Source: Styela clava (Eukaryota). From it: a DNA stretch of 64,000 bases. The notes under the pieces are model-generated. The model ran no database searches. It was not told the DNA's origin and saw only the letters and a list, made by a program, of their open reading frames with translations. Shown here piece by piece: positions 36,186 to 62,212 of the stretch. The stretch's first letter is position 1; each line of letters begins with the position of its first letter. Location of the stretch: positions 4,774,001 through 4,838,000 of the forward strand of contig NC_135250.1 in NCBI RefSeq assembly GCF_964204865.1, in the 5' to 3' direction. The position numbers and the translations under genes were made by a program.

Positions 36186-37018
36186 AATCAATTTCAAAAT
36201 ATTCATAAATATTGCAGACAATGCCCAATATGTGTCTCTCAGCGGTATCAACTATTTTGTTCCAAAATTTTGCAAGACGTAGTACCAGGGGGACTGACTC
36301 CCTTAGTGTGTGTACCATGTTAGAGTTAGGTCATAATTTTATTCCGATTTTAGTTCTATTACGAGTCGGGGACTGTCTGTGTTAGCCAAGTAAATATACC
36401 CCATGCCCATAGGTTTCAGTCCCTTTACACAACTGGATGTAAAGTAAGTGAACAAAATTAGTTAATTTCCTATTATTTTATCATTCATTTTATCATATTA
36501 ATCATTTATTTTACGAACTGATTTACTAATCTATTAGAAAGGTCTTGTACACACCAAAATATTCGTTTTAAAAAATTTTATTTTTTCGTAGCTGGTGTCG
36601 GGGTACAATTTTTTTCAACCGGCTGACGAAATCGATAGTAATTTTTTCCGTAATCCACGGTCCTAACTAGTGCACGCAAAACGTGCATCCGACGTTAGAT
36701 TAGGAGAGTGTCATACATTGTCTTATCGACTTCTCGCGTCATATACCGGTACTTTTGCTTTATTAAACATCGTATATTGCATGCATTAATATGTAAGTCC
36801 AACCAACTATTTACACTGCATGGTGATTATCTATGTTGTGATATAGTTCCGTTGAATTCCGTAATATCGAAACTCAAGATTCACTCACACTCTCGTCATC
36901 GTAAATCCGAATTCACGTACTGATAAAAGTATTTATTGAATTAGTGAACAAGTTATATCCACCCCAACACAACCAAATACCTGGCTAACTAATCCCATGC
37001 CCGTTATAGACTAGTAAC

Positions 37019-37186
37019 CAGTAGTGGGATTCAGCCGGTTCGCACCGGTTCTATAGAACCGTCTCACGGAATTTTATGAGATCAGCGAACCGGTTAGCAT
37101 TACATGACTTTTTGTAACAGAACCGCCTGGAAATATGACATTTGTATGATGGAACCGGCTGACAAAAAATTCGAATCCCACCACTG
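37019..37186. mobile_element. 168-bp hAT-type MITE inserted into a SINE fragment
   Basis: cagtagtgggattc / gaatcccaccactg. Exact TSD ctagtaac. Flanks resemble the 3' part of the SINE at 49056-49376. Second copy at 48338-48517. Confidence 0.9.
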
Positions 37187-41140: not shown

Positions 41141-42760
41141 TATATAATATTAATGACAAAAAACTAAAGAGTACTAGTAATTAATACTACTGCGAAGTGC
41201 GAACCAAATGAGAACTTCTTCCCAGTTGGGAAATGGGTTTGGACCCTGCCGATGATTGAATTTGATGGCACTAATTATAACGTGAACAAACCGTTGATTA
41301 GGGAAACTACATTTCTGTATGCAAATTGAAATCTAATCGTTATTACAACTTCGCTTCAAGTCGAAAATAGCCATTATGCTTCTTTGTGTTTGGCTGTCTC
41401 CCCCATGTCCCACATTAAGATTTCTTCGCAATTATGCCTATAGGCGGTGCAGACAGAAAGGCATTGTCATCTTACTCGTTACATTTGCTCCGTTTGATAT
41501 TACAAAGACGTATGTATAGATTGTTACCTGATTGACAAAGTGCTATTCAGTTTTTATTATGCAATTCATTGAGGAAGGATTGGGAGTTAGTCTCTCGCTA
41601 CCTCTACTGATAGTTAATTCAGTTTTTAGTGGCATATTAGAAAAAGAAACATCAATTTTCGAAGTTAAGAAATGTCGGGAGCGGTTTCTAATACTGTGGA
41701 GGCTTATATCATACCTAACATTAATTATTGGCATTTCATAACTCATCATCTATACTGTGAGTAGTATCAGTCTGTTTTGAATTTTGTGAAATATTCTTTT
41801 GATGTATATATGAAAGGTTTAGTGTTTAAATGTCTGTGAAATATTCTTTTGATGTATATATATATGAAAGGTTTAGTGTTTAAATGTCTGTACCAATTGT
41901 GTGATATTTTAGTTCAGCCTCGAGAATACGAGTATAGTAAGACCTAGAATGCCGAAGCTAATATATGTCTGTGTTTATCGATTTATCGTAGCAATGACAA
42001 TGCTCATATAGAATCTGATTAGAGAGTATGTCATTGTGTTTTATTCTTAATTCTATGTCAGGGATGTGCAACCTTTAATACAGGACGACCGGATACAGAT
42101 AACTGGGTAAAACCGCGGACCGCACTTTAATTTAACAGAGGCTTTCGAGTAGTTGCAGGCACAAAAATTTGGGTCATTGATCTAATGACTTCGCTTCACA
42201 CAAGGTAGCTGTTAGGCCTAGGGCACTGTAACGTCATATGCATAGCTGATAAATCGGACTCAGCTATAGACTTTGCAACGCAAAAGGATTGGAATTACTA
42301 GCATGTACCAGATTAAACTAAATTAAAAACTCGTTTGGGCACATTTAATGCACGTTAATTTCTAGTAATAACCCCTAACAATTGATATTGATTGGCTAAT
42401 TTGCAAAATTCATATGGTATTCACCATTAATATCAGTAATTTTGAAACTCTCCTCCCAATCTGTCGAACTAGGTGTTATTAACCGTGGTCGCTGCTCGAT
42501 AACCAGTTTGGTTCTCCGCAGCTTCCCTTCTTCAGTAATGTTAATATGATTTTTTTCTTTTAATTTTGCATGTTTTTTGTCCTTTACTGGTTGGAAGAAA
42601 TAAACTTGACTTGACTTTCGCGGGCCGCCCACCATTCAAAATTGGCATTAATATCATATATATTATTGTTTTCTGATGAAATCCTTCCCTTCGATTACTG
42701 TTATTATATTTCAAGTCATTTATCACTTAATTTTTCAGTCTAGACTTGTAATCATTAAAG

Positions 42761-45700
42761 ATGCTGTCAATATACGCCAATGTTGCAACTGTTTCTTTAT
42801 GTTTTGCGTGGTTCCAATTTATTGGAAAGTCCTTGTCAATTCGACTATGCAAAAAATATATTCCATTGCACCTCGAACGATTATCTGATGAAGACAAAAA
42901 GACTTTAGCCAACAAGTTTGTCCTTAATTAATTACTTGATTAAAAATTTGTTGGGATTGAGATTAAATATAGATGGGCGCGAGGCTGATTGTTTCACAAA
43001 TTTGCCTTTTTTAACATTGCAAATATTGTTCATAAAATGTAAATCATTATGTCATACTTACATGGGCCCCCCAGTCTAGGTGGGCAAATTTTTGGCCCCT
43101 AATCAGAGGACCTTGCCCACCACTGCTCTGACATATAGTTTTTATTTTACTTGGGGCTATTTCTCGATTTTGAGTTGATGGAATGGTGTGTGTCTTTGGT
43201 GATGTAACCTCACCTTTGGGGATCGGCCAAAAAGCTATCGCACTGTTACTATTTTCACGCTATTTATAAGATTTTAATTTCATTTTTTTTGATCTAATAG
43301 ATTACTTTGTTGTGTATTTTTAGAATGATGTCTTCATTTAACTCAATCTTTGTGTTTTTCAACGTGTCGGCTATTCTTGTTCTAAATTGGCAACGTATAC
43401 GCAGTGACCCATATTGGTGAGCAAAGTTCTAGTTTGTTTGAATTTTTTTTGGCAACTGGAACAAAAATGTAAAGGGTTCGAGTCGCAATCTGAATACAGT
43501 CTCGAAAAATCAGAATCTTGACATAGGCCGAAAAGTTGTGCAAAGAGTATTTATCTGTAACGCTTAGAATCAACCGGGGTAACCTAATTTTCCGTGGTAG
43601 TAATATTCATTTAGTGCATAGAATTGTGTAGCGCGTACGATAATTTGGTCGCATTTTGACTCCAAAACATAGCATGCAAGCCCGAATAGTCTATTTCCAA
43701 CCTTTTGGCAAAATAAATCAAACTTTTTCAAAAATTTCATTATATATTATTCAAGTAATTCGACAAGGTTTTGGAAGTGAGCAAACGTCATTTAAAATTA
43801 TTTCGAACCCAAGTTCCGGCCCGAACATTTTTGATGACACATCGCCTGTTAATTTGCGTCAACCGTGCACTTTCCCCGAATCACTTTTGAGACCATTCTA
43901 TGACACCAATTTCGTGACAGGGATCGAACGATAAGTTGACGCATAACATAATGTTGTAAACTTGTCACCTTTTCCTGAAAAACAAATAGAGCCATTAGCG
44001 AGGTTTCATTTTGGGGACTCCCGTAGTGTATGTACCAGACTAGGGTTAGACCATAATTTAATTTGATTTATCTTATTTTAATTCCATTACGAGTTCGAGG
44101 ACTCTTTGTGTTAGCCAAGTGAATATACCCGCTGCCCATGAGTTTCAGTCCCTTCACACACCTTTTGTAAAGTAGGCAAACCAAATTAGTTACTTCATAT
44201 TGGTACAAACATTTCTGGGCTCAAATATATATATAGACAAGAATGTGGTACCGGAATATGAACGTACGCTATTTTAAAGGCACTAACACAACACAATATG
44301 GTGGCGATTTAGAGTAGTTCTATGTGTTTTATTTAAGCATTTTGTTTTACAGGGCTGACACTTTTGTCCGCGAACCGTACTGCTGCATCAGTTTAGCCTA
44401 TTTTTTATCAGGTATTATTTATCGTGTGTATACTTATATTGTTATTATATATATCACACGATCATATATATCTTATCATATCATTAATTGTAGATCGAGT
44501 ATTTTGAAACGCCTGCAACATTTGATTTTCAAACTTTATTTCTTGAATTGCCAAGCACAGTATGCCGGCAATGACAAACCTGTATAAATACGACTATGTA
44601 TTTCAATTAAACTCTATAAAGATAATGAGGGTTTGCTCCGGAGTGATTTTGAAGTAAGTGGACTGCGGTAGCAGAAAAGAATTGAATCCAGATTAGTTTT
44701 TGTGACTTTCTTCAAAAATCAACAGCCCGGGTTCGCAAACCCGGTTTCTAATTTGCATTGCTTGCTATATATATACCAACAAATACTAAATTATCTTTTA
44801 CCATTCCATTTACCCTACAACTAGTAGGAGAATTTTCAAAGTTAGTTTTATACGCATGCGTGTGAGTTACCGACATGTATTATCTCTGTATGATTACATT
44901 TTTGAATACCGATTACAGAGAGTTCCCGAAGTATGTGTGCCAGTTTAGGGTTATCAGGTTGTGCGCCATCTTTGTGCCAATACTTGAGGAGCGCCGATTA
45001 CAGAATTATCTTTTTTTGTCACGAGGTGAGACTGCCGTATTACCTCTGTCTTTATGTTCGAAACCTAATCTAAAGTTCAGCATCTCTTTTGGCAACTTTT
45101 CTGAATTTCCTTCCCGTGTGTTGCACATTTTTTCTGGTACAATGGCGGAATTCAAAATAGATTGGCTTATCTTAATTTCACAGACATGATCAACGATTTG
45201 CGAGGGAAACGAAATTTCAATACCATTTTTTATGTCCTTCATCATTCCATGTGTCTGTCAACTATTTCAATAGTCATAGTAAGTGCCTCTAGGTCTATTT
45301 CGGGCGCTCCAGAAGTGTGTGTACCAATATGGAGGTAACTAGTTTGGTTCGCCTACTTTACATTAAGTTGTGCAAAGGGACTGAAACCTATGGGCAGGGG
45401 ATATATTTGCTTGGCTAGCACAGACAGTCTCTGAACTCGTAATAGAACCAAAATGAGAAAAATTGGAATAAAATTGAATTCTAACCCCATTCTGGTACAC
45501 ATACTACGGGAGTACCCAATTTCGCTCATCTATCAGAGAAAAAATTCTCAAAAAAGGGTTGCTTACTAAATTCTCAAATAAGGTTTGCTTACTGACTTAA
45601 ATGTGCATTCCGAACTGTATTCAATGCCAAACGTTAAATTTCGCTTTTTCGTAAAGATAAAAATTATTAAAAAAACAAACAAACTTATTCGAACCATTAT

Positions 45701-47579
45701 TTTGGATACTCCGTGGTGTGTGTTATACCAGGTTAGGGTTGGGCCATAATTTTATTCGGATTTCCCATATTTTAGTTCTATTAACAGTTCGGGATGTCCG
45801 TGTTATACCACATGAATATACCATAGGTTTAGGCCATTTACACAACTTGATGTGAAATGGGCGAACAAAATTAGTTACCTCCATATTGGTACACATACTT
45901 CTGAAGCGCAGATTTTTTGTATAAATAAACTTGGATTGATGACCAAGGGAAATGTGGCATTTATCTTCTGTCTTTATTCCTCTCTTTCTGTAATTTGTAC
46001 TTTTTCGCATAACTTGACTACAATTTTGCATTTAAAGCTTTTACTGCAACCATCAACTTACACTTCTATAATTACAGTACTACAGAGTCTTCATTTTCCA
46101 CGTATGTATGAGAGGATTGAATGAAATGTCTACGCCTGTCCTGAATCTTAGGTGAGATAAATAATTACGCCCGAAATGCTAGTTTAGCACCAACGAACGT
46201 ATATATGTCACATAGCGTTGAAAAAGCCTTGCTCTTCAAATATAAAACCTAGACTGAATTTTAAAAATGATTCCAATATAAGCCCTACCCTTAAAATAAC
46301 ACTTAGTCAATACCGCAAATTTTTTTTTCGGTAACGCGAATTTTTTCTAAAGAAAATCGTGTTATTTATAAGCAAATGGATATTAGTTTTCATACTTTGT
46401 ATATTTGAATATCTCGTAATTCTCTACTTTGTAATATTGTTTTTGGTAGATGAAAATAAAAGTCATCCACCAAAAATAACTCCTAGTGTTTTTTTTTTCC
46501 AAAGAAAATTGAAATAAGACCCCGTCCTTTTTTCGGGGAAACGCGGTATGTTAGTCAGTTACTCGGGCATTGTCAGATGTTATCTGAAAATGTGTAAGGT
46601 ATTCTCGTAATCAGTCGTCTGTAATTCTTTCACGCTGGCCAGCGTTATGGTGTAACGTTCATTACAAGCAATTGCTCAACGTCCGGATATTTGACCACGG
46701 AACAACTGCTAGCATGAAATCGTATCATACATTTTTGCCTTTTCTTAGGTGGGCTTTGAAAAAGTTCGGCATGGAAAATGAAAGAATTTATGCTATGACG
46801 GAAATTGCGTTTGTTGTGACATACTTCTTGGGTCGTATTGTTACTATGCCAGTATTTTACTATACTATACTTATAACGAAAGATACTGAGGGATATAAGA
46901 GGTGAAGAAATTTTATTTTTATCAGGCTTTAAAAACATGAGATGGGTGACAAATGAAACAATTCTTACATTTAATCAGAGTGATTATTGCATAGAAGGGC
47001 GCTCCAGAAGTGGGTGTACCAATATGGAGGTAACCTATTTTGTTCGCCTACTTTACAAAAGGTGTGTGAAGGGACTGAAACTCATGGGCATGGGTTATAT
47101 TCACTTGGCTAACACAGACAGTACCCGGACTCGTAATAGAACTAAAATAAGGAAAATCTGAATAAAATTATGGCCTAACCTCAACCTGATACACACACTG
47201 TGGGAGTACCTATAAAAGTGTATTGCTCATGTGCTTCTTTGATCGAATATTTTTCTAATACTGTTTTATTTCGCCATCATTTTGTCAGATAGTGATGTCT
47301 ACTTTCAAAATTATCTAGTAAAATGATACAATTAGGGATAAACGAACATGCCATGTTCATCAAAGTTTGGTGATATTTGTCGATTTTTACACATTCACTT
47401 CACTTTTACCAATTTGAAAATATTCTAATTGCAGGCTAAATACACTATGCAAAGTGATATTCTTTGGATCAGCAGTTGTTATAGACACACTAATCATATA
47501 CTGGTTCCTTCTGATCTGCAAAATGGTATTTACCAATGTCAAAGAACGTACTCAGCAGATAAAAGGAAAAGAAGAATAG
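42761..47579 (+). CDS. tlcd4: TLCD4/TMEM56-like paralog 2 (257 aa, 7 exons)
   Basis: Exons 42761-42915, 43324-43416, 44353-44411, 45184-45278, 46078-46151, 46749-46901, 47435-47579; 774 nt, open frame, GT-AG. Internal exon sizes 59/95/74/153 match paralog 1. Motifs LAYFLSD, YVLHH, RGLNEMSTPVLNLRW, TYFLGRI, IDTLIIYWF. Confidence 0.92.
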
Positions 47580-48337
47580 CAATGCGATTTTGAATGATTT
47601 TTAAATTGGATTCAATAATTATTTTGGAAATTAAAATATATTTATCTTAAAATCAACAATGTCATATCGAAGCAGGATTGTATTTTTGAGCAAAAGCCAT
47701 AAGAGTTTAGTCTGTATGCTGCATTTAGCTTCGCTGATTTCTGGCAACTTTACTCTAGATAAAAGCAGAGTTGTTCTGTGTTACGTACCACTAGTCAATA
47801 TTTGTACTCAAGGAGGTAGGATTGAAAAGGGAGGCTGTTCGCTTGTATACATTCTAAATAAAATTAACGAATCATTGAAAATTAGCTTCTGTGGTTACAA
47901 ACGTCCCAGTGTAACATAGTGCCAACATAATATACATTCATCCGCAACACTTGGTTTTTTAATCCCACGCGTGCGGTGTAGATAGATAAATTAAAAATGA
48001 AGAGTTCTGGAGAGCGAGCAAAATCTTTAAAAAGCTTAAAACATGAGAAATATCACGTGCCCGCCCACCAGCACACAAACAAGAAAAATACAAAGAAACA
48101 CCAACCAAGTTAAACGAGGCTTGGGACAGAAATAAACAAACATTAAGATACGCGAATGTAATTTTCGGACTGTTAGACTTTTGAAACACTCAAGCTAATA
48201 CAGTAATAATGACTAGTTTAATCTGATACAGTATATCTGTATATACCTTAATATAAATGTCTTGAAAAGATAGAACTATAAATTCAATTTTCAATCTTCT
48301 CGAAACTTACGCTGATACAGCAATATACAGATATATG

Positions 48338-48517
48338 CAATGGTGGATTTAGCAGGCGGTTCGCACCGGTTCTATAGAACCGTCTTACGGAATTTTATGA
48401 GATCAGCTAACTGGTTAGCATTACTGGTTACTGTCAATGACTTTCTGTAACAGAACCGGGTGAACATATGACTTTTGTGATGGAACCGGCAGACAAAAAA
48501 ATTGAATCCCACCACTG
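48338..48517. mobile_element. hAT-type MITE (same family as 37019-37186), present only in the left arm
   Basis: Exact TSD gatatatg (48330-48337, 48518-48525). The right arm shows the empty site near 51932-51940. Confidence 0.9.
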
Positions 48518-48897
48518 GATATATGTTGTTAATGTACAAACAGATAACGGCGAATGGTTGATCTAACAACATCGTTGTAGAAGCTTCATCCCAATACCAT
48601 GTTGACGTTTTTGGAACATTGAACAGTCCTATGGAATCAGTTACAAATATCGTGTTTTCTGCATAGAAAAAAGTTTGCTCTCGATGTTTTTCCGATCTTT
48701 AAATTCAATCAATCAATCAACCAATCAATTTTATTTTAGTCACTCTGAAAGAAACAAAACAACAACAAACGGACAAACAAAATGCAGAGGACCTGGAGGA
48801 CGGGCATAACTTAATAAAAAGTTAAAAACGTACAAGTACGTGCCCACGCACCAAAAACAGTCAAAAAAACATTCAAAAGATGTTCCCTATAGTGACA

Positions 48898-49045
48898 ATA
48901 GACCACACTAATGACAAGCTGATTGAATATTTCGATCCAAACCATAATTTTATGTATGTGGACGATCATTGCGCGATCTGCAAATCTCGAGAATACTTTT
49001 AGAACTAGTAAACTATAGAAAACATTTTTTGAAGATTGGAAAAAC
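48898..49045 (+). pseudogene. Short decayed non-LTR retrotransposon reverse-transcriptase fragment
   Basis: Reads IDHTNDKLIEYFDPNHNFMYVDDHCAICKSREYF*N**TIENIF, resembling the IYTND...FIYADDLCI catalytic region of LINE RTs. Short and degraded. Confidence 0.5.
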
Positions 49046-49055
49046 GATGAGAGCA

Positions 49056-49376
49056 GGATAGGATAGGATTTGTGTATTTAGTCCAGGGGAGAGGAAAGCC
49101 GATAAGATGGCTTAATCATATGGGGAACCACTGCCTCTCGTCCAGTTACAAGTCCATGTCGGGTATAGGATTAGTTAGTCAGTTATTTGTTTTCAGAGTC
49201 ACGGAAATGATTGTGGATGAAGCCATAACCGACCAGCGGTTACGTGAACCACCCTACGACGTCGAAGAGACCACTTAACCCCGCATGGGATTCGAACCTG
49301 CGTACCCATACAGGGTAATCAGCGGTGCGGGGTCGAGCGTATTCCTAACGCTTAGCACGATGCGCCACCACCGCCG
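49056..49376 (-). mobile_element. tRNA-derived SINE, apparently full length
   Basis: Minus strand begins ggcggtggtggcgcatcgtgctaag (A-box-like), contains ggttcgaatccc (B box), and ends in an (atcct)n tail. Related fragments at ~8502-8530, ~25060-25240 and ~36960-37240. Confidence 0.85.
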
Positions 49377-50064
49377 AGAAAACGCGATATCTGTAACCCA
49401 TTTCATAGGACTGTTCAATGTTCCAAAAACGTCAACATGGCTTTGCGCTGAAACCTCTACAACAGCGTTTCCCAACCTTTATTGATCGCGGACTATTTTC
49501 TCACCGGCGAAAACCTTTGCGGACTCAAGGTGAGTTTATTGCAACCGTACTCAGTGTGAAGAAGCAATAAAACCAAATACAACAGAATTTTGACGAATTT
49601 CAATATTGGCATTTTCTGTTGCACAATATTCAATCCATGACAACGACTAGAATTTAAAATGTCTTTCTATTTTAATTTAATTGTGTTCATAGTAACTCAC
49701 GGTTGCGTCGACTTACGACGGGATGAAAGCATTATCTCTTTAAAATGCCACGGCAACCTGTGAGCATGATAATGTGAGAATATATTGTCCGATTATATTT
49801 AGTTTTGATACGTATTTTTTGCGAGCTTGCGAATTTGTTGTCGCCCTTAGAAATACCCTACTATCTGCTATAAATTTCCAGATGGTACAACTTGATTTAG
49901 TACTTATTAAAAATATATTTAAAGTATATTAGTAAATCCAAAAATACATATTCATCGCCTTGCTTTATTATTAATTTAATTGTTATCATTTTAATGTGCG
50001 GTTGTGTTGACGAAATAAAAGCAATACTACTCCGAAAATATTATGACAATCCGTGGATTAGTAA

Positions 50065-50358
50065 ATGAAAAATACATACTCATCGCCTTTCTTCATTATT
50101 AATTTAATTGTGATCATTTTAATCTGCGGTTGTGTTGACGAAATAAAACCAATACTACTCAGAAAATATCATGACAATCCGTGGACACAAAAATGCGTGG
50201 TAAAGTGCCCAATTATTTTTGTGAATTCGACACCTACGCCGCTCCGCTACTGTACGTACCAATGTGGAGGCAGTGAAGCAAAGAATCCTAAGGAAAAATG
50301 CCCTGGTACGTTTACTACGGTAGCACGAGAAATTTTGAAATTTACCAGTAATCAGTAA
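50065..50358 (+). CDS. Hypothetical 97-aa protein with a hydrophobic N-terminus and Cys-rich body, inside the hAT element
   Basis: True ATG. Signal-like FFIINLIVIILICGC, then CVVKC...CTYQC...C. No family recognised; coding status is unproven. Confidence 0.3.
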   Translation: MKNTYSSPFFIINLIVIILICGCVDEIKPILLRKYHDNPWTQKCVVKCPIIFVNSTPTPLRYCTYQCGGSEAKNPKEKCPGTFTTVAREILKFTSNQ

Positions 50359-51002
50359 TTTATTTTTGCACATACCGAAAATAGGAAAGTATACAAACAG
50401 TAAGGTAAAACATAAAATAATGAATTTCAGTGTGAAGGGAGACGCGATAAACCAGTCTTGGTTATCGAGCAGCGTCACCTTTGAGGGAGTCTAACATAGA
50501 ATCACAAAAAAAAGGGAAGCTGAATAATATTTAATAACAGAAATCGGCCTTTTAGGTACGTTTAAGCGACCTGGTGTTTCCAGCATCGCTCATAGTGATT
50601 CTAGAGAACAACTCCGGGCACCACGGGCGGGGTAACCGCAGTAGACTGAATGCAAAGTGACTATAAACCTTTGATGGAATGACAGACGGGAGATTGCTAG
50701 TTTTTGTGTGCCTATCACGTTTGAGTAGCCTTTCACAGGAAATATGAAAAAAATAGAAACCACTCAAATTGTGAGAGGTTTACGAAGTATACTCAGGGTA
50801 TCATGGTATCCTGCATTGGCATGGTGCCATGGAGACAGTGATAAAGTAACAAACAAGGAGAAGCAGTTAATGAGAGATAAAAAAAATTCTAGTAGGTTAA
50901 CTAAGAGGTCATTTGTCCCAAAGTATGTGATATTTAGTACAACAGCATGTGGATCATGAAATGCTGGGCACTTTTATTGTAAAAACATAAAAAATAGTAT
51001 AT

Positions 51003-51369
51003 CGCCGGATGAGAACAGAAGGGGCCTAAGTCACATTTTTGCAAAATTCACTTTTTTCAATATTTTGGGGATTTGAGCCATGCTCTACAAGGTGGTAGTC
51101 TTGAAATCCTGAATTTCTCAATAATAAAAATTTTAGCTGGACTTAGGACTGTAGAAGTTAAGAACAGAATGGGCCTAAGGAATTGAAGCTGAAGTGCCAA
51201 TAAATGTTGATTACAAAGATATTCATATCCACATTGAAATAACCAGAGCTCAGGTCTTTACTGAGTGTGAATATCTAGAAATTCAAAAATAAAAAAATTC
51301 CGAATTGTTTTTTGCGTTTTTCTCAAAACTCAAAATTGTGACTTAGGCCTGTTCTGTTCTCATCCGGCG
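51003..51369. mobile_element. 367-bp MITE with ~40-bp TIRs and ATAT flanks, nested in the hAT element
   Basis: atat|cgccggatgagaacagaaggggcctaagtcaca ... tgtgacttaggcctgttctgttctcatccggcg|atat. Superfamily uncertain; a 4-bp AT-rich TSD would fit Sola. Confidence 0.85.
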
Positions 51370-52729
51370 ATATATACTATGATAATAGCTGCTGAGCTGC
51401 AGCATTTATCTGTTTTTATATTATGAAATCAATAAAAAAGGCTGCGGAATCATAGGGAAACTGGTAATATACTTAACTGTGCCATGTCTAAAAAAGCGTT
51501 TTTAATCGGTCGCGGACCATCATAAAACAAAACTTATGTTGTTCTCCGTTTTATTTTTAGTATTGGCACTTAGGTATTATCCATCGACGAGTGATTAAGT
51601 AACCTGTCGCGTCACTCGTTACCAAATTTTTGAATAGTAAATTGCTATTCTAATATTTGAATATACGCCCAGCCCTACTCGCTAACAGTAATTATTGACT
51701 CGATTAATGTTATGCAAATAAACTTGCTTTTTATGTTTTATGTATATTCCAACGTAAATCGTAACTAAGCTGATATATAGATAGGTTTCACAAAAACGTT
51801 TGCGGTCCGCAGTGAATTTCTGGATCGTTGCGGACTCATTCAAACGCTCCGCGGACTCGGGTTGGGAAACACTGCTCTACAACGATGTCGCTGGATGAAT
51901 CATTCACCATTACCTGTTTGTACATTAACAACATATATCTGTATATTGCTGTATCAGTGTAAGTTTCAAGAAGAATAAAAATTAAATTTATACCCTTTCA
52001 AGACAATGAAGACATATATATACTTTTTACTTACAATTAAGGCATATACAGCTATACTGCATCAGACTAAACTAGTCATTATTACTGTATTAGCTTGAGT
52101 GTTTTAAAAGTATAACAGCCCGAAAGTTCAATACATTCGCGTATCTTATGTTTGTTTATTTCTGGCCCAAGCCTCGTTTAACTTGGTTGGTGTTTTTTTT
52201 TGTATTTTTCTTGTTTGTGTGCTGGTGAAATTTCACGTGATATTTCCAATGTTTTAAACTTTTTGAAGATTTTGCTCGCTCTCCAGAATTCTCCATTTTA
52301 AATTTGTGTGTTTCATGGAGTTTTCAAAATGAACTATCTATCTACATGACCGCAAGCTTGGGTTTAAAATATCAATTGTTGCTGGTGAATGTAAGCTAGT
52401 ATATTATGTTGGTACCATGTTACTCCGAGACGTTTGTAATCACGGGAGCCTATCTTCATGATTCGTGAATTATATTTAGAAGTATACAACCAAAGTGCCT
52501 CTCTTTTTAATCCTACCTTCTCGAGTATATTTATTTGCCTAGTGGTACGTGACACATAACAACTCTGCTTTTATCTAACAGTAAAGTTGCCAGAAATCAG
52601 CGAAACTAAACGCAGCATACAGATTAAACTCGTACGATTCTGGCCAAAATACAATTTTGCTCCAATATAGCATGACCTTGTTGATATTGAGATAACGTAA
52701 TTATTGAATCCAATTTAAAAATCGCATTG

Positions 52730-55700
52730 CTATTCTTCTTTTCCTTTTATCTGCTGAGTACGTTCTTTGACATTGTTAAATACTATTTTGCAGATCAGAA
52801 GGAACCAGTATATGATTAGAGTGTCTATAACAACTGCTGATCCAAAGAATATCACTTTGCATAGTGTATTGAGTCTGCAATTGGAATATTTTCGAATTGG
52901 TAAATGTGTAAAAATCGACAAATATCACTAAAACTTTTGATGAACATTAGGCTTGTTTGTTTATTCCTAATTGTATTGTGTTATTAGATAACTTTGAAGG
53001 AAGACATTGCTATCTGACAAATGTATGATCAAATAATTCATTGAGAAAATTTGCGATCAAAGAAGCACATAAGCAATTCACTTTTATAGGCACTCCCGTA
53101 GTGTGTGTACCAGTGAGGCCATATTTTTTCCAATTTTCCTTATTACAGTTCTATTACGAGTTCGGGGACTGTCTGTGTTAACCAAGTGAATATACCCCCT
53201 GCCCATAGGTTTCAGTCCCTTCACACAACTTGATGTAAAGTAGGCGAATAAAATTAGTTACCAACTCCCATATTGGTACACATACTTCTGGAGCGCCCTT
53301 TTATGCAGTAATCACTTTGGTTAAATGTAAGAATTGTTTCATTTGTCACCCATCTCACATCTTGTCACGTTTTAAAGCCTGATAAAATAATAATTGATAA
53401 TTCCTTCACCTCTTATATCCCTCAGTATCTTTCGTTATAAGTATAGTATAGTAGAATACTGGCATAGTAACAATACGACCTGAGAAATAAGTCACAACAA
53501 ACGCAATTTCCGTCATAGCATAAATTCTTTCATTTTTCATGCCGAATTTCTTCAAAACCCACCTAAGAATAAACAGAAATGTATGATATATACAATTTTA
53601 TGCTAACAGCTGTTCTATAGTCTAACAACCAGTGAAGTGAATGCTACACCATAACGCTGGCCAATGTGAAAGAACTACTGGATTACGAGCGTGATTTACA
53701 TATTTTCAGATAACATTAGTCAATGCCAGTGTAACTAACATACCGTGCTTCCCCGAAAATAAGACGGTCTTATTTCAATTTTCTTTAAAAAAAAAACACT
53801 AGGGCCTATTCTTGGTGGATGACTTTTATTTTCATCTATCAAAAACTATATTACAAAGTGGAGAATTACGAGATATTTAATTAAATATACAAAGTATGAA
53901 AACCGATATCCATTTGGTTATAAATAACAAGATTTTATTTAAAAAGAATTCGCGCCACCGACTAGGTCTTATTTTAAGAGGAGGGCTTATATTGAAATCA
54001 TTTCTAAAATTCAGTCTCGGACTTATTTTCGTTGAAACACGGTAATTAGTGTTAATTAAAGATATTTGCAGTCTGATTCAGAGTATTTCAAATACAAGGC
54101 TTTTCAACGCTATGTGACAAATATACGTTTGTTGATGACTGGACTAACATTTAGGCACAATTATTTATTTCACCTGAGATTCAGGACAGGCGTAGAAAGT
54201 TCATTCAAGCCTCTCATACATATGTGGAAAAGGAAGACTCTGTAGTACTGTAATTATAGAAGTGTAGTTTGATGGTTCCAGTAGAAGATTTAAATACAAA
54301 ATTGGGTACTCCCGTAGTAGTGTACCAGGTTAGGGTCAGGATTTTTTTTTAATTTTAATCCAATTTTCGCTTATTTTAGTTCTATTACGAGTTCAGGGAC
54401 TGTCTATGTTAGCCAAGTGAATATAACCTCTGCCCATAGGTTATAGTCCCTTTACACAACTTGATGTAAGGTAGGCGAACAAAATTAGTTACCTCCATAT
54501 TGGTACACACACTCCTGGGGCGCCCGAAATTGACCTACAGCACTTACTATAACTATAGATATAGCTGATAGAACCATGGAATGATGAATGAGGAAAATTA
54601 TTTTACTGAAGTTTCGCTTTCCTCGCAGATCGTTGATCATGTCTGTGAAATTAAGATAAGAAAACTTATTTTGAATTCCGTCATTGTACCAAAATAAATT
54701 AACAAGACAATACAGGAAAGGAAATTCTGGAAAGTTGGCAAAAGAGTTGATGAACTTTAGATTAAGTTTCAAACACAAAGACATAGAGGTACTATGGCAA
54801 TCTCACCTCGTGACATAGAAGATAAGTGAAAAAAGCACGATAAGATGGTCTGTAAACCTGTCTTTAAAGCTTGCAAGCATTGAGAGACAATACATGCCGG
54901 TAACTTACATGCATGCGCATAAAATTAACTTTAAAAATACTCCCACTTGTTTTGGGGGTAAATGGAATAGTGAAAGAAAATTTTGTATTTGTTGGAATAG
55001 CTATGCGAGTAATGCATATTAGAGACCGCGTTTGCGAACCCGGGCAGTTGATTTTTAGAGAGAGTCACACAAACTAATCGGGATTCAATTCTTTCATGAT
55101 GCCGCAGTCCACTTTACTTCAACATGACTGCGGAGCAAACCCTCATTATCTTTGGAGGTTAATATAGAGTCGGATTTATATAGGTTTGTCATTGCCGGCG
55201 TACTGTGCTTGGCGATTCAAGAAATAAAGTTTGAAAACCTAATATTGCCGGCCTTTTTGAATATATTCGATATACAATTTAATGATATAATATTAAGTAT
55301 ACACACGATAATTAAGTACCTGATAAAAAATAAGCTAAATTGATGCAGCAGTACGGTTCGCGGACAAAAGTGTCAGCCCTGTAAAACAAATTGCTCAAAT
55401 AAAACACACAGAACTGCTGCGAAACACCACCATATCCCGTTGAGTTAGTGCTCCAAAACAAGGGTGTGCAACATTTATTACACGAGGGCCGGATACAAAT
55501 AACTGGATGAAACCGCGGGTCGCACCTTTACCTCACATAGGCTTTCTAGTAGTTGGAAACCAAAAATTTTGGTTATTGATCTTGTGCGTTATTCGTTTTG
55601 CACAAGCTCAGATATAGGCTTTGCAGCGCAAAGGAGTTGGAATTACTCGCACATACTGGATTAAATTAAAAACTCGTTTCGCGGGACGCACGCCATTCAA

Positions 55701-57518
55701 ACGTGGCGCTCCTTCGCGGGTCGCACAAGTTGTCAAATAAGGGCCGCATTTGAGCCGTGGGCCGCGGCTTTCACAACCCTGCTCGAAAATAAAGCGTACG
55801 TTCATCGTTCGTTACCGCATTCGTGACATTATATTTGAGATTTTGTCTCGAGCCAAAACGACACCTTGCTAATGACTCTACTCATTTTTTTGGCGATGGC
55901 TCCATTCGATTTTCAGTAAATGTGATAAGATTACAACATGTTACACTTCAATTACTCGTCCGATATCTGTTACGAAAACGGCATCATAGAGTCGTGGTGG
56001 ATGTCATTCAAGTGATTTAGGGAAAGTGCATGGTTGACTCAAATGGGCGGGCAATGTGGTATCATTATACCTTTCGAAAAAATTGAAACCGTTTGGTACG
56101 TAAGAACCCTGCAAGATTAGTTACCAATAATGGGAAATAAAGAGTTTGATGTCCGTTAAAAACGCTTTATGGTGTCGACAAATTCGCTGATATGATGGGT
56201 TCCGCAGTTGATTGGCATGGGATAATGTGAAATACGAATTATATAATGAAAAACATGCTTGGTAGTGATTAGTCAATTTGGCACTTTACTCGCAAAATGT
56301 TTCTACACAGTTCAAGTTGGGCCCGAACTTGAGATCGAAATAATTTTTTAAATGGCCTTTGCAGTCAGTAAATAGTAATCAGTAGTTTATTTTTTCACCA
56401 TACGTGAAATACACTTCCTGAATACAGAATGTAAAAAGGTGAAAAACTTATATTTCGGGGTGGAAGGAGTCGCGAGAAACCAATACTGGAGGAGGAATAG
56501 GAGAAAAATACAAGCCGAGGCGACCTGAATTTCGAGAAGACGCCCGATACGCAAAGAAACAAAAACAAAAAATGACCCCAAGCTTCGTTTTGCTCACCTC
56601 TAATACACTGTCAAACTACTCTATAAGAAAAGTTTTTAAATGGTTCAATTTATTGTGACACAAGGTTAAAAATCGACCGTTTGTACTCGCATTCTCGGCT
56701 TTGAAATGAAAATGCGACCATTTTATCGTCCGCGCCCATAATTATATGACCAATGGTACAACTGAATATTAGGTTACCTCGGTTGATTCTAAGCGTTACA
56801 GATAAGTAAACTTCGCACAACTTTTCGGCCTATGTCAAGCTTCTGATTTTTCAATACTGTATTCAGATTGCGACTTATTAAAACCAATTACATTCAATAT
56901 ACATTCACGAAAACTAGAAATTTGCTTGCCAATATGGATCACTGCGTATACGTTGCCAATTTAGAACAAGAATAGCCGACACGTTGACAACCACAAAGGT
57001 TGAGTTAAGAGAAGACATCATTCTGAAAATACACGAAAAAGTAAGCTATTAGAATTCTTATAAATAGCGCGATAACGAAAATAGTAACTTTGCGATAACT
57101 CTTAAGGTCGATTCCCAAACGTAAGGTTACATGTAACAGTGCGCTCCAGAAGTATGTGTACTAATATGGAGGTAACTAATTGTGCTCGCCTACTTTACAT
57201 CAAGTTGTGTAAAGGGACTAAGTCTATGGGCAAGAGGCATATTCACTTGGCTAACACAGACAGTCCCCGAACTCGTAATAGAACTAAAATAACAAAAATC
57301 GGAATAAAATTATGGCCTAACGAATTGAATCTTTGTTTCAGCAATAATTAATCAAAGACTAACCTGCTTGCCAATCTCTTTTTGTCTTCATCAGATAATC
57401 GTTCGTAGTGAGATGGAATATATTTTTTGCATAGTCGAATTGACAATGACTTTCCAATAAACTGAAACCACGCAAAAAATAAAGATACAGTTGCAACGTT
57501 GGCGTATATTGACAGCAT
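52730..57518 (-). CDS. tlcd4: TLCD4/TMEM56-like paralog 3 (257 aa, 7 exons; intron 2 has a GC donor)
   Basis: Exons 57518-57364, 57022-56930, 55378-55320, 54642-54548, 54247-54174, 53562-53410, 52874-52730; 774 nt, open frame, same exon sizes as paralog 2. The donor after exon 2 is GCAAGC. Confidence 0.88.
55459..55781. mobile_element. Charlie-type hAT MITE present only in the right arm
   Basis: caagggtgtgcaac ... cacaaccctg with flanks ctccaaaa / ctcgaaaa. The equivalent left-arm site (~44270) is empty. Same family at ~10250-10555, 42058-42340 and 57660-57959. Confidence 0.82.
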
Positions 57519-58633
57519 CTTCAGTGATTACAAGTTAAGACTGAAAAATTAAGTGATAAATGATTTAAAATGCAATATCAGTTATATCAAGTTAATTTTA
57601 ATTGAAAGGAAAAGATTTCATCAGAAAACAATAATATGATACTAGTGCCAATTTTGAATTTCGTGCGGCCCGCGAAACGAGTTTTTAATTTAGTTTAATC
57701 TCATACGTGCGAGTAATTCCAATCCCTTTGCGTTGCAAAGCCTGTGCCTGAGTCCAATTCATTAGCTATGCATATGACGTTGCAATGCCCTAGGCCTAAC
57801 AGCTAGCTTGTGCGAAGCGAACAACGCATGTCATAAGATCAATAACCCAAATTTTTGTGCTTGGAACTACTAAAAAGCCTCTGTTAAATTAAAGTGCGGC
57901 CAGCGGTTTCACCCAGGTATTTGTATCCGACCGTCCTGTATTAAGGTTGTACACCCCTGACATAGAATACAGAATAAAAACAAGATATTCTCTAATCATA
58001 GACGAAGTTCGTGAACATTGTCATTGTAAACGATAAACACGGATACATCGGGCCAATCCTCGAAGCTGAACTAAAATATCACACACTTGGTGCATACATT
58101 TTCACACTAAACCTTCCATATATAAATCAAAATAATATTTCACCGAATTCAAAACAGACTGATACTACTACACAGATGATGAGTCATGGAATGCTAATGA
58201 TATTCAACGTTAGGTATGATATACGCCTCCACAGAATTAGAAACCGCTCCCGGCACTTCTCGACTTCGAAAATTTATGTTTCTTTTTCTAGTATGCAACT
58301 AGAACCTGAATTAACTATCAGTAAAGGTTGCGCGAGACTAACTCCCAATCCTTCCTCAATGAATTGCATAATAAAAACTGAATAGCACGTTGTCAAGACC
58401 AAGAGGCAACAATTCATATATATGTCTTTGTGATATCAAACGAAGCTAATGTGGCGAGTAAGATGTAGATGACAATGCCTTTCAGTCTGTACCGCCCAAA
58501 GGCACAATTGCTGAGAAGTGTTAATATGGGACATAGGGAGGGATAGTCAAACACAGTGAAGCAGAATGACTAATATCGACTTTCTAAAACCGTTAAATTG
58601 TACAGAAATGTAGTTTTCTTAATTACCAGTTTT

Positions 58634-58887
58634 TCAACAATCGCCAGACCAGGTTTATGCTCGTTTTGAGAAACACGTAAAACTTTGGTTTTTATTTGTT
58701 GATCGCAGCATTTCTTATTGTACTTATCCTCGATCGCTTTATTTCTCAGACGTATGGTTTCCACTTCTTCGCGAGTGGTCTCAGGCAAAACCCCAACACC
58801 GCCTGATAAAACTCCTCCCGCCTAAAGATAGGTTGGAAGCGATACTGAATCAGAAACATGCAGAGCTATCACTTCGCATGTCTTTAT
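58634..58887 (-). pseudogene. Inverted, truncated USP pseudogene copied from the 59540 gene
   Basis: Reverse complement aligns with 59540-59900. ATG>ATA (58885-58887), a deletion of roughly codons 4-40, TAC>TAG (58822-58824), and truncation before the ATP-binding motif. Confidence 0.92.
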
Positions 58888-59539
58888 GATTGCAGCAAAT
58901 GAAATGCAGCACAAGCAAACTTACGCCTCACCGTAGATGTGTGTGAAGTCATCAAAACAACTTATCGACACATTTTCATAGATTGTTACCTTTAACGTTT
59001 GGTACTATGATTAGCTCAATATAATAATATTTTATATAAAACGTTTTAGTCATAATCGTGAAACCAGGTCACAGTTTTGTCAGTCACCAAATATTATGGG
59101 TGATGGTCGCGAAAAAGTGCACATTCAAAACAAAACATTCGAAAATAGGCCACGCTAATGAGAATACTGTACTTTGATACAAAATTATAATTTTGTGTAT
59201 GTAGACTAGTATTCGAACTGCACATCAACAGGCATCAAAAAGCTCGCAATTGTAAAATATTTTGTTCTGAATGTGTCCTTTTTCGCGACCATCATCATAA
59301 TATTTGGTGATTGGTAAAGCTGTGACTTGGTTTTATCATTATGAGTATGACGTTTTATATAGAATTTTATTATTTGAAATAAATAAAATATAATAATAAT
59401 GAGCCAATCATAGTTTCAAATGTTAACGGTAACAATCAATGAAAATATGTCGATTAGTTTATTAGACTCCACACACTTCGCTTGTAAGGCGTAAGCTTGC
59501 TTTGCGATTTGCTCCTGCTGCATTTCATTTGCTGCAATC

Positions 59540-60046
59540 ATGGAGACGGGCGGCGTTCTTGAAAGTCCACCAATGCGGGTAATGGTTTGCATTGACGACA
59601 GTGTATATTCGCAAGTAGCATTTGAATATTATGTAGAAAATTTCCATCGACCAGAAAATGAGGTGATAGTCTTGCATGTTTCTGATTCAGTAACGCTTCC
59701 AACCTATCTTTACGCCGGAGGAGTTTTTTCAGGCGGTGTTGGGGTTTTGCCTGAGACCACTCGTGAAGAAGTGGAAACCATACGCCTGAGGAATAAAGCG
59801 ATCGAGGACAAGTACAATAAGAAATGCTGTGATCAACAAATTAAAAACAAGGTTTTGATTGTTTCTCAAAATGAGCATAAACCTGGTCCAGCAATTGTTG
59901 ATGCAGCTAAGAAACACAACGTAAATTTGATTGTGGTCGGAACCAGAGGTCTAGGAATGGTGAGGAGAACCATAATGGGATCAACTAGCAGTTATGTTAT
60001 TCATCACTGCCACATACCTACTTTAGTTTGCCCGACACCGAAATAG
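59540..60046 (+). CDS. Universal stress protein (UspA-domain), single coding exon, 168 aa
   Basis: RVMVCIDDSVYSQVAFEYY N-terminus. G-2X-G-9X-GS motif GTRGLGMVRRTIMGSTSSYVIHHCHIPTLVCP. Confidence 0.95.
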   Translation: METGGVLESPPMRVMVCIDDSVYSQVAFEYYVENFHRPENEVIVLHVSDSVTLPTYLYAGGVFSGGVGVLPETTREEVETIRLRNKAIEDKYNKKCCDQQIKNKVLIVSQNEHKPGPAIVDAAKKHNVNLIVVGTRGLGMVRRTIMGSTSSYVIHHCHIPTLVCPTPK

Positions 60047-62212
60047 ATTCAACTGGCATCTGTTTGCAGTTTGTCACTACTGTCCAACTGTCTTGACTGT
60101 ACTTCCAGACTACAACACTAAATCTACCTAATTGCTGAGAGATTGCATATGAAATATTGACATCTAATATTACTGTATAAAATCTGTAAATGTTTGGATC
60201 TCATGTAGTTTCGTACCACAATAACTTCTAGTGCAGTAGTGGGCTTATCCTAACCATGTTTGCATATGTGATTCCCAACCTCTGAACCTCCACCTGACTA
60301 CGTCATCCAAAAATTATGTCACTACGACATCACTGATTCACTGTATTGTAAAAAGGCCTGGCAGAATATAAGGATTGCCATCCAAAACGTGCAGGCGATT
60401 ATCCTTAGTCGAGCAAGCTATTTTTCTCATTTTGGCAATCTCAATATGAGAGAGATGCTTGCATTAGTGAGTTTGTATTATGCGGCGCAGATGATGTTTC
60501 GAACGATTGTAGCTATACTAGTATACTTTGACAAGCTCTATTGTGCGATTGTGATGTCGTAGTGATGTCATTTTTTGCCGACTCAATCGCAGGGGGGTTA
60601 GGAATGACATATGCAATAATTGTTATGCTGCGCTCACTAGAACTACTTGCGGTACGAAACTACACTAGATCCGCAGTTTGTTACTACTCTACAACACTTA
60701 CTGAATCTACCTATTTGGTGAGCGATTGCATATGAAATATTAGTAATATTAGTGTATTAAATGTTTTATATCACTTCATTGAAAACCATGTTATGTTGTG
60801 AAATAAAACAAAAGATAATTTGGTTCTGCGATGATATGAACATCCCTTTATCTATTTTTGCATATTAAAATTCCTATTCCTTTCCTATTGCAGTTCCATT
60901 TTTATAGTTTCGAGATATATTTGTGTTTCTCATTTTAATCAGCTATAATTGATTATAATATAATTATTGATTATATTATAATTGATTCTTATCAAATTTT
61001 AGATAATTAATGTTAGTCTCAAAATTCAATTTGCCATGTACTTGAATTAACAAACATTTTTGATTGTATATTTCATCAAGTAGAAAGGAAAAAATTATCA
61101 ATTACCTTCTGTTGTTCCTTTTGTTATATGATTGCAATTTTCATTCAGTGTTTCCTTGATTTGTTTTTGAAAATCATTATTTAGCGAAAATGGAACAAGT
61201 TGTCCCAGGAAAAAATTAAATCATGTTTCATATTGCAGTGTTGTTTTCTCCAAGACTCAAAATGTCTTCCAAGTTTTAATGACCATTTTGTAAAATAGCT
61301 TTTTACTCGGAACAAAGTGCATATTTTATCATGCTTTTATTTTATCATCAAGCTGAACTGAAAAAAAAAAATTAAATTATTTTCATGTGTGGATTTTAAA
61401 TCAAGAAAAATGTATATAACGATATATAATTTCTTTTCATTAACCTGCAAGACATACATAAAGCAATTATGCAGTAATTTTGACTCAAAATTTTAGCATT
61501 ACGAAAATCTCAAATTTGAACAATCTTTTATGGATGATGCAGTAGAAATAATGCTGAAAAAAATTATTTTGACAGATTACCATTTTTTTTCAATCACTCA
61601 ATTAAATAAAATACTATCTATATAAGAGCTTATAGTGTTTGCTTGAAGTAATATTACACGATTTCATCATTTATTTAAATATACTTTTTGTATAAATTCA
61701 GCTGCAATAACTAAATAATAGCCTAGCTTAACCTTTGAAATTTCAAACTCAATTTCATTCCAGAATATTTTAAATTCTAAGTTGGTGCAAAGGATAGAAA
61801 TGATGTTAATTTTCTAAAAAAGTCTTGTTACAGCAAATAGAAAATTAACAGATTTATTGCCTTTTGTACATTTGATTGTAGAGATTATGACTTGTTACTT
61901 TTGTGTGCAAGTTTTTTTACCGAATAGTACTAAAAACTGATAATTTCGTTTTGTGTTCTAATAGTTACTTTTTTGATATGATAATCAGTACATAGTGAAT
62001 ATTTTCCGGAAGTAAGAAAATTTTTTTCGTTAATTTTGTGTCAAATTTGAGGAAAAATGCGTATACATATTCGTTGCTTCTTATTTTGCAATATATCTTT
62101 TTATGGTCGCCATTGATATTAGTATATGATTATCACTAAACTGAAGTTAATATTATTGTACAGTCTATCTGGAACTAGGCTAGCTCGCGATTGAAGAATT
62201 TTGCAATAATAT

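Follow-up and report, generated by a model that had tools for sequence, protein, structure and literature searches.

Two mirror-image TLC genes of Styela clava lie in an inverted duplication that adjoins a second palindrome with the same loop

Results

Styela clava carries a real inverted duplication with two intact, mirror-image TLC genes. In the window, that is, the whole 64,000-nucleotide stretch of contig NC_135250.1 analysed here, we observe the segment order A X m X' / Y' m Y C, where the slash marks the junction between X' and Y'. A large palindrome holding the TLC genes (X m X') stands next to a small one (Y' m Y) derived from a universal stress protein (USP) gene, and the loop m is common to both. 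With a probability of roughly 60%, this arrangement goes back to one staggered chromosome break, each end of which was folded back before the ends were rejoined. Inverted paralog pairs are common and their birth is rarely readable; at this locus all three junctions survive.

Architecture of the locus

A self-comparison with blastn returns nine collinear minus-strand blocks (41358-48660 against 58582-49377, 72 to 87% identity) and confirms the diverged palindrome that a first-pass annotation had placed at 41296-58625. We refine its arms to 41283-48893 and 49012-58636, and gaps in the arm alignment bear out the arm-specific insertions also reported in that annotation, which had not noted the second palindrome or the loop common to both. 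The segments are as follows.

41283..48893, + strand: arm X, the original TLC gene position with ~1.5 kb of upstream and ~1.3 kb of downstream DNA
48894..49011, + strand: left copy of loop m, ~118 bp, the true spacer of the large palindrome, with ACAAT at 48895-48899
49012..58636, - strand: arm X', inverted copy of X
58634..58636, - strand: junction X'/Y', USP mid-frame fused to the outer end of X, the two probably overlapping by 3 bp (TGA)
58634..59146, - strand: arm Y', inverted and dead, copied from the USP upstream region and the first ~120 codons
59147..59248, + strand: right copy of loop m, which separates the arms of the small palindrome; ATTGT follows at 59249-59253
59249..59901, + strand: arm Y, the USP upstream region in its original place with the 5' part of the coding sequence
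59540..60046, + strand: intact, intronless USP gene, 168 aa, with an open frame (PF00582, 96.7 bits)

The arms of the large palindrome are 80 to 88% identical, with 12 to 20% divergence and 141 gaps in noncoding DNA. Introns 1 and 2 diverge by 20%, versus 12 to 15% in the other segments (P = 2e-4 under the stricter alignment; a looser estimate, K of ~0.28, is partly inflated by nonhomologous insertions). The innermost 22-nt piece of X' scores 32 at its expected place, a value reached by 0 of 3,190 other windows. In the second palindrome (58634-59901), the outer end of the right arm meets the dead inverted 5' USP copy; the terminus of X' coincides exactly with the start of this broken copy, the junction being placed with an uncertainty of some 15 bp. 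The broken copy has lost its start codon and ~108 bp and contains one in-frame stop. No Rfam families were found in 47000-60500.

Each junction is bridged by read-derived contigs from runs X1 and X3, which may themselves derive from the assembled individual. A 443-nt contig (58359-58801) crosses the X'/Y' junction with 0 differences in both runs, the centre of the USP palindrome is spanned by contigs at 58833-59702 (X1) and 58848-59702 (X3), and the left loop is bridged by a contig in X3. Contig depth in the right arm is close to that in the USP region in both runs, a depth that does not give copy number. The comparison covered 4 of 9 runs presumed to be RNA, whose contigs are unstranded, and 3 of 5 other runs; dispersed repeats dominated most of the resulting tables, and depth on unique stretches was near 0 to 1 in run X14.

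These contigs bear on the concern that two haplotypes of one locus were assembled back to back. Such an artefact would fit the absence, among the contigs and reads listed, of any record covering the entire palindrome, and also the version-.1 accession numbers of the two genes (L and R, below), which are far apart. Mis-joined haplotypes are nevertheless very unlikely, since a noncoding arm divergence of 12 to 20% lies far above allelic variation (heterozygosity of ~1.72% is reported for S. clava in the available text of PMC7540406). Besides the bridged junctions, each gene has its own close version-.1 variant (98% identical for L; differences at 6 of 257 residues for R).

Two intact TLC genes under purifying selection

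The genes lie tail to tail in the two arms.

42761..47579, + strand: gene L coding span, 257 aa, P0001 (XP_039274544.2); all introns GT-AG
42761-42915, 43324-43416, 44353-44411, 45184-45278, 46078-46151, 46749-46901, 47435-47579, + strand: gene L exons
52730..57518, - strand: gene R coding span, 257 aa, P0008 (XP_039270470.2); intron 2 with a GC donor
57518-57364, 57022-56930, 55378-55320, 54642-54548, 54247-54174, 53562-53410, 52874-52730, - strand: gene R exons

Both gene models equal the annotated proteins. As the first-pass annotation held, each has an intact 774-nt frame with matching exon sizes (seven coding exons of 155, 93, 59, 95, 74, 153, and 145 nt, no stop or indel), and the two are identical at 710 of 774 nucleotides and 230 of 257 amino acids. 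Purifying selection on both copies, likewise proposed there, is supported by a pN of 0.051 versus a pS of 0.199 (Fisher P = 2.7e-8) and by a dN/dS of 0.23 to 0.30 between the paralogs. The coding sequences differ by 0 indels in 774 nt, where ~24 would be expected at the noncoding rate. The dead USP fragment, duplicated together with the retained TLC gene, serves as a built-in neutral control for this selection.

The products are predicted TLC (lipid) acyltransferases with intact active-site residues. The Pfam TLC domain PF03798 is recognized in L at 82 bits and in R at 88 bits (cutoff, 24.6; profile positions 3/4-198). No PDB sequence match was found for L, the one protein modelled; its predicted fold (pLDDT 95) has Lac1/CerS6 as its top 8 PDB structure matches (TM 0.65 to 0.74, E values of 6e-4 to 2e-2). 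L, R, and a third paralog, P0006, all carry the candidate active-site residues D103, H122, H123, E150, and R188. Among 56 aligned relatives, H122 and R188 are conserved in 56/56 and D103 and E150 in 54/56. The residue spacings of 19 and 28 equal those of D98/H117/E145 given for TLCD1 in the available literature text, an equivalence drawn from spacing and conservation rather than from alignment to human TLCD1. "TLCD4-like" is an automatic name, and the putative orthology to vertebrate TLCD4/TMEM56 is drawn from such names. Other relatives among the matches listed are at most 35% identical and mostly unnamed.

The palindrome centre and its later insertions

Only part of the ~0.7-kb spacer first described as retroelement debris answers to that description: ~480 bp consist of two later insertions (48709-48870 and 49058-49376), whereas ~115 bp are eroded arm and ~118 bp are the true spacer. 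The elements near the centre are listed below.

48353..48517, strand unassigned: short dispersed repeat in the left arm only, a gap in the arm alignment, with a copy at 37032-37186
48709..48870, - strand: dispersed repeat at the inner end of X; it terminates in (TCAA)n, and its 6-bp target-site duplication reads ATTCAA
49058..49376, strand unassigned: dispersed repeat at the inner end of X', with partial copies at 25097-25241 and 36971-37018
49463..51874, strand unassigned: 2.4-kb DNA transposon confined to the right arm; it has terminal inverted repeats, and the 8-bp target-site duplication is CTCTACAA

From its tail type we take the repeat at 48709-48870 to be a retroelement; the scored candidates include 40 further copies (704 at first look), none of which continues past 48872 (query base 183). 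The repeat at 49058-49376 is presumably SINE-like, given a tRNA-like motif, and we assume the transposon to be hAT-like; both end regions of the latter match an element ~4 to 5 kb upstream of the window. Because the transposon interrupts the right arm 87 bp beyond the spacer as first drawn, ~3.3 kb at the centre are unpaired today; the symmetry has been lost through later insertions. By a post hoc hand count, four insertions lie near the centre versus eight elsewhere (P = 0.016).

Arm homology ends where loop homology begins, at 48894. The left loop aligns to 59141-59226 on the same strand with a score of 73 to 76, versus 20 on the opposite strand; the maximum was 39 over 2,000 shuffles and 43 over 789 windows, so that none of these controls reaches the observed score. 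In the genome search, which misses diverged copies and did not retrieve even the 71%-identical right loop, the left loop is matched closely by nothing but itself; the right centre hits nothing beyond itself and its inverted arm. We also considered m as a dispersed repeat, which genome matches to either loop do not support.

Origin of the arrangement

The first-pass annotation had proposed an old fold-back, and this origin now has stronger evidence than was offered for it, namely, the small palindrome and the common same-strand loop. The ancestor would have read A X m Y C, an order and an orientation of m that we reconstruct from the copies. Nicks on opposite strands, ~110 bases apart and flanking m, would have given both ends an overhang consisting of m. 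Snap-back synthesis primed at ACAAT/ATTGT, or else replication and sister-end fusion, may then have turned each end into a fold-back looped by m, and end-to-end joining of the copies X' (~7 kb) and Y' (0.65 kb) would yield A X m X' / Y' m Y C. We infer the break, the order of events, and the enzyme activity.

Noncoding divergence is alike in the three pairs of segments, as one event predicts: 671/4,519 between X and X', 42/253 between Y and Y' (P = 0.47), and 17/84 between the two copies of m (P = 0.17). ACAAT and ATTGT flank the reconstructed loop, and a run of at least 5 nt occurs by chance in ~1% of random registers. This microhomology is short and eroded, one derived fold-back junction reading AAAAT for ACAAT and the other having no motif. 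In yeast, fold-back priming can occur at an inverted repeat of 5 bp whose halves lie 35 bp apart (PMC10622511, in the text available), and reciprocal foldbacks from a single break are documented in cancer genomes (PMC12807874). Because the loops in the cancer model, as far as its accessible text describes them, are neighbouring resected stretches and not one common stretch, an extra assumption, the ~110-nt stagger, is needed here. The one-break model also misses a step in the history, since the third paralog (P0006, XP_039274543.1, from the version-.1 annotation) is about equidistant from L and R and absent from the present assembly.

The main rival to one break is a head-to-tail tandem duplication of X-m-Y followed by an inversion with breaks before the first and after the second copy of m, the ancestral m then being reversed. 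It would give exactly the identical final order, with X, m, and Y uniformly in two copies and a Y/X joint that is the typical product of tandem duplication. Direct and inverted local duplications both occur within 70 kb, and Drosophila inversion breakpoints are described as enriched between duplicated genes (PMC3355041, available text). We regard this route as unlikely, though by no means negligible, for it takes two events instead of one and requires both breakpoints to fall no more than ~120 bp apart within a ~6.8-kb unit (P of ~0.035), unless the short inverted repeat or AT-rich palindrome of m targeted both.

The properties of the right loop suggest a further route. It is quasi-palindromic (self score of 46 versus 20 for the left loop), with a perfect 18-bp AT-rich palindrome at 59179-59196 as its core, and might have been cut as a cruciform to leave two hairpin ends; alternatively, a Y/X circle might have been reinserted in reverse at its own locus, duplicating m like a long target site. 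Reasoning strand by strand, a crossover in a palindromic m or the opening of a cruciform hairpin should leave the loops in opposite orientations, whereas we observe the same orientation, and reinsertion of a circle at its own site is a further coincidence. Both variants appear improbable.

Hairpin RNA and gene conversion

It had been suggested that convergent read-through could form long double-stranded RNA (dsRNA) and that the arms could exchange sequence by conversion. The first idea finds no support: 4,029 bp separate the distal AATAAA signals, the ~3.3-kb centre is unpaired, and 467 of 9,605 right-arm 21-mers occur in the left arm. The second is weakly supported, in that residue states across the paralogs suggest some conversion: at position 209 the two window genes carry K where the three version-.1 genes all have Q, and version-.1 R matches L at residue 168. 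Identity does not change systematically toward the centre (Spearman P = 0.55), and the coding sequence has no excess of long identical runs (P = 0.57). The longest perfect run measures 55 bp, and the longest identical run counted in noncoding DNA is marginally long (62 versus a mean of 44, P = 0.03). As judged from these sequences, gene conversion has probably been at most occasional and short.

The palindrome might instead be kept as a regulatory unit, in which dsRNA or siRNA from convergent read-through tunes both genes and conversion holds the arms together. The convergent genes, 35 identical runs of at least 21 nt (1,104 bases) between the arms, the residue states, and the marginally long noncoding run would all fit. 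We consider this improbable, given the distance between the polyadenylation signals, the four symmetry-breaking insertions at the centre, the divergence and gaps of the arms, the missing gradient, and a pS that is not lower than noncoding divergence. L and R now behave as ordinary TLC-family paralogs.

Comparison with known systems

At the protein level, L and R share PF03798, Asp/His/Glu at the TLCD1 spacing, and the invariant Arg with the TLC acyltransferases TLCD1, CLN8, and the ceramide synthases as described in the available text of PMC11838012, and the L model has the same ceramide-synthase-like fold.

Mammalian Y palindromes are maintained inverted gene pairs with nearly perfect arms. 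Here, near-identical arms or long conversion tracts are not seen, the noncoding divergence being 12 to 20% without a gradient, and we find no sign of ongoing wholesale homogenization because the arms are 80 to 88% identical and carry arm-specific transposons. The inverted gene pairs of Caenorhabditis elegans resemble the locus in being convergent and homologous, and their arms too are nearly perfect according to the available text of PMC1803023.

Staggered-break inversions in Drosophila, so far as PMC3355041 could be consulted, are alike in their staggered nicks, inverted duplications, and a new gene as by-product. Their order, A P Q' M' P' Q C, contains an inverted, single-copy middle, a form that the Styela order does not fit: such a middle is absent here, all inverted DNA being duplicated in the order X' then Y'. 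The segment order thus rules out a classical staggered-break inversion.

Fold-back inverted duplications in humans (PMC3907307) and yeast (PMC10622511, PMC11724301) resemble the locus in their short spacer and would also share with it a few bases of inverted microhomology at the spacer edge, eroded here, and folded-end synthesis captured by end joining. The human spacer is single copy, measures 766 to 70,466 bp, and usually lies beside a terminal deletion, and local templated inverted insertions in yeast measure 2 to 150 bp. These events are described as one-sided in the available texts, whereas both ends are involved in Styela; instead of the single-copy spacer of a classical one-sided fold-back, the spacer is present twice, and the inverted arm copies measure ~7 kb and 0.65 kb.

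The locus also resembles reciprocal foldbacks, of which 23 cases were reported among 2,588 cancers and ascribed to breakage-replication-fusion (PMC12807874, Nat Genet 2026, available text). In these, too, a pair of fold-back junctions points outward from a single site, and nearby parallel breakpoints are joined at each. In Styela, X m X' and Y' m Y lie on opposite sides of one reconstructed ancestral site with loop m in common, and the parallel breakpoints, set against the ancestor reconstructed from the copies, are ~100 to 120 bp apart at both centres (the threshold of that study is 20 kb). The Styela locus differs in being germline-fixed and ~15% diverged, with the same ~110 bp in both loops, and its products were rejoined locally, with no loss seen and one of them yielding a retained intact gene. 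The reciprocal-foldback table in the supplement of PMC12807874 could show cases with overlapping loops.

Our literature search, confined largely to openly available main texts, listed neither a double fold-back fixed in a germline nor any work on the locus. In animal genomes, inverted paralog pairs are now usually ascribed to tandem duplication and inversion. We tentatively propose, as a possibility short of an even chance, that a reciprocal double fold-back from one staggered break is preserved here as a germline fossil, in which both flanks were reverse-copied without loss and a lasting gene was born, and that such events may explain a share of these pairs. If the one-break reading is true, a tumour-type rearrangement also yields heritable intact genes and leaves a countable signature: two adjacent palindromes with one common same-strand loop and a head-to-tail junction, which can be searched for genome-wide.

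Two palindromes around a shared loop

A self-blastn of the window aligns 41358-48660 with 58582-49377 as nine collinear minus-strand blocks (72-87% identity), and each arm holds one seven-exon gene, L or R, with exons of 155, 93, 59, 95, 74, 153, and 145 nt in both. The two 774-nt frames align with zero indels and are identical at 710/774 nt and 230/257 amino acids. The inverted ~17-kb arrangement with two intact genes of equal exon sizes, as described in the first-pass annotation, is thereby borne out. The USP half of the locus, comprising a second palindrome and the common loop, was missed in that reading: the outer end of the right arm adjoins an inverted, broken copy of the neighboring USP gene (PF00582), 58634-59146 being the mirror image of 59249-59901. 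In this copy the start codon and ~108 bp are missing and one stop has arisen; its joint with the arm shows a probable 3-bp overlap.

Features of the window:
986-2146 (+), open frame of 387 codons, starting with what we take to be a PB1-like, Par-6-like stretch
20283-26573 (-), older TLC paralog XP_039274456.2, ~16 kb from gene L, coding part in seven pieces with a layout resembling that of L and R
30965-31874, 269-bp terminal inverted repeats, 98% identical, enclosing a 196-aa, presumably transposase-like frame
35637-36182 (+), USP-family frame
41283-48893, arm X
42761-47579 (+), gene L
48894-49011, left copy of loop m
49012-58636, arm X'
52730-57518 (-), gene R
58634-59146, Y', dead inverted USP copy
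59147-59248, right copy of loop m
59249-59901, Y, USP upstream and 5' coding part
62210-63300 (+), exon-like frames, which we take to resemble theta-class glutathione S-transferase

At the large center, the inner arm ends are masked by a dispersed repeat (6-bp target-site duplication) and a SINE-like repeat. With these two set aside, arm pairing extends to 48893 and 49012, and the innermost 22-nt arm piece scores 32, a value reached by 0 of 3,190 other windows. Repeats are present in what had been called a ~0.7-kb spacer of retroelement debris, but the remaining ~118 bp aligns on the same strand to the center of the USP palindrome (score 73-76 versus 20 on the other strand; the maximum was 39 among 2,000 shuffles and 43 among 789 windows). 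No other close copy of m was found in the searched genome, at the sensitivity of the search, or in 264 kb around. Divergence is alike across X/X' (14.8%), Y/Y' (16.6%), and m/m (20%). In order, the locus reads A X m X' / Y' m Y C, with A and C the outer flanks and the slash the joint. The center of the right loop is a perfect 18-bp AT-rich palindrome (59179-59196), either the original fragile site or perfected later; the left copy is not palindromic. A second USP-family frame near the locus lies at C1:4840141-4840605 and, like that at 35637-36182, is ~40% identical; contig C1 carries at least eight such frames.

The palindrome is not an assembly artefact. Mis-joined haplotypes are ruled against by non-coding arm divergence of 12-20% of aligned sites, uneven among segments (p = 2e-4) and with 141 gaps, versus a k-mer heterozygosity estimate of ~1.72% for the species (PMC7540406). 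In addition, version-.1 protein records, probably from another individual, contain separate close variants of L and of R. A read-derived contig (58359-58801; public runs X1 and X3) bridges the outer junction with 0 differences, contigs from both runs span the USP palindrome center, and an X3 contig (48740-49092) spans the left loop with 12 mismatches and 7 gaps; the assembly may itself derive from these runs, and the whole structure is spanned by none of the listed records.

A retained pair of predicted acyltransferases

L and R are a real, ordinary pair of retained paralogs, and their models equal the annotated Styela clava proteins XP_039274544.2 and XP_039270470.2. They were the only close copies in our protein search of the genome, which also returned the 33%-identical TLC paralog at 20283-26573 and weaker matches on contigs C14 and C17. 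A third paralog of the version-.1 annotation, XP_039274543.1 (24 residue differences from L, 28 from R), was absent in this search. In run X10, guessed to be RNA, three letters in exon 2 (43355-43362) give its residues 63-65, two of them private to it; it is either a third copy whose presence differs between individuals or an allele of deep divergence.

Purifying selection on both copies, as earlier proposed, agrees with 33 synonymous differences at 166 sites against 31 non-synonymous at 605 (NG86 counts, p = 2.7e-8) and with dN/dS of 0.23-0.30 by four methods. The non-coding gap rate predicts ~24 indels in 774 coding nt (~12 in each lineage), against 0 observed; therefore, each copy has been constrained through most of its history. 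With XP_039274543.1 as third taxon, private residues number 10 in L, 14 in R, and 11 in the third protein. Exon 4 (45184-45278 and 54642-54548) is the most diverged (20/95 nt; heterogeneity among exons, p = 0.002), its differences surrounding a conserved His pair. We do not take this cluster as evidence of positive selection, because synonymous changes are equally raised there (9 synonymous, 8 non-synonymous codons).

Both proteins contain PF03798, and the predicted structure of L (pLDDT 95) best matches ceramide synthase structures. D103, H122, E150, and R188, retained in both, rank with the most conserved positions in an alignment of 56 relatives, and the first three share the spacing of TLCD1 D98/H117/E145, needed for activity according to mutants (PMC11838012). 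L and R are therefore predicted membrane acyltransferases, with "TLCD4" a putative label. Evidence for expression is indirect, from RefSeq splice isoforms of both genes and one spliced contig. Intron 2 of R has a GC donor (56929-56928) where L has GT, which fits R isoform X2, annotated in both versions, that lacks the 93-nt exon 2 and keeps frame. The contig, from run X5 (presumed to be RNA), carries R exon 6 spliced to L exon 7, each part with 0 differences; it is not assignable to one gene, since it is probably a fusion formed across 50 identical nt.

Origin and later history

An old fold-back duplication, the origin first suggested, is favored by the same-strand loop shared by both palindromes. 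A single staggered break would leave m on both ends, and each end would fold back with m as its loop; same-orientation twin loops are what such a break predicts. ACAAT and ATTGT flanking the reconstructed loop could have primed both fold-backs; this evidence is modest, as such a repeat would arise by chance in ~1% of cases and its motif is eroded in the products. Tandem duplication followed by inversion, from an ancestor carrying m reversed, yields the identical segment order, but it requires breakpoints <~120 bp apart in a ~6.8-kb unit (p ~0.035) and seems less likely. To a one-break double fold-back, pooling snap-back synthesis, sister-end fusion, and triple template switch, which are inseparable by sequence, we give a probability of roughly 0.6.

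Local inverted duplications are not rare in this genome. At C1 ~4858000-4905000, some 20-70 kb past the window end, direct (6.8 kb, 93%) and inverted duplications form another such complex.

Four insertions near the center, one of them 2.4 kb long and flanked by an 8-bp target-site duplication, have abolished the symmetry of the palindrome; palindrome instability falls with longer spacers and with divergence (PMC7999016). Long dsRNA, earlier envisaged, finds no support here: it would take ~4 kb of read-through, and the arms share only 467 of 9,605 21-mers. As to arm-to-arm gene conversion, also proposed, the arm comparison reveals none in bulk. Hints come at the protein level from residue 209, where L and R of the window have K and the three version-.1 genes all have Q, and from residue 168, at which version-.1 R has the state of L (2/7 variable sites); one or more events of conversion or parallel change would be required for these patterns.

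The notable part of the locus is the still-readable double fold-back scar. We found no fixed germline double fold-back in the literature searched (partial coverage, main texts without supplements). Yeast fold-back is primed by 5-bp repeat copies 35 bp apart (PMC10622511), human fold-backs show 2-8 bp of microhomology (PMC3907307), and for cancer genomes PMC12807874 describes 23 cases of reciprocal foldbacks from a single break. An inversion from staggered breaks, as in Drosophila (PMC3355041), was rejected as origin because its segment order differs from that of the Styela locus. Inverted gene pairs of C. elegans (PMC1803023) are near-perfect, unlike the L and R arms with their lack of bulk conversion.
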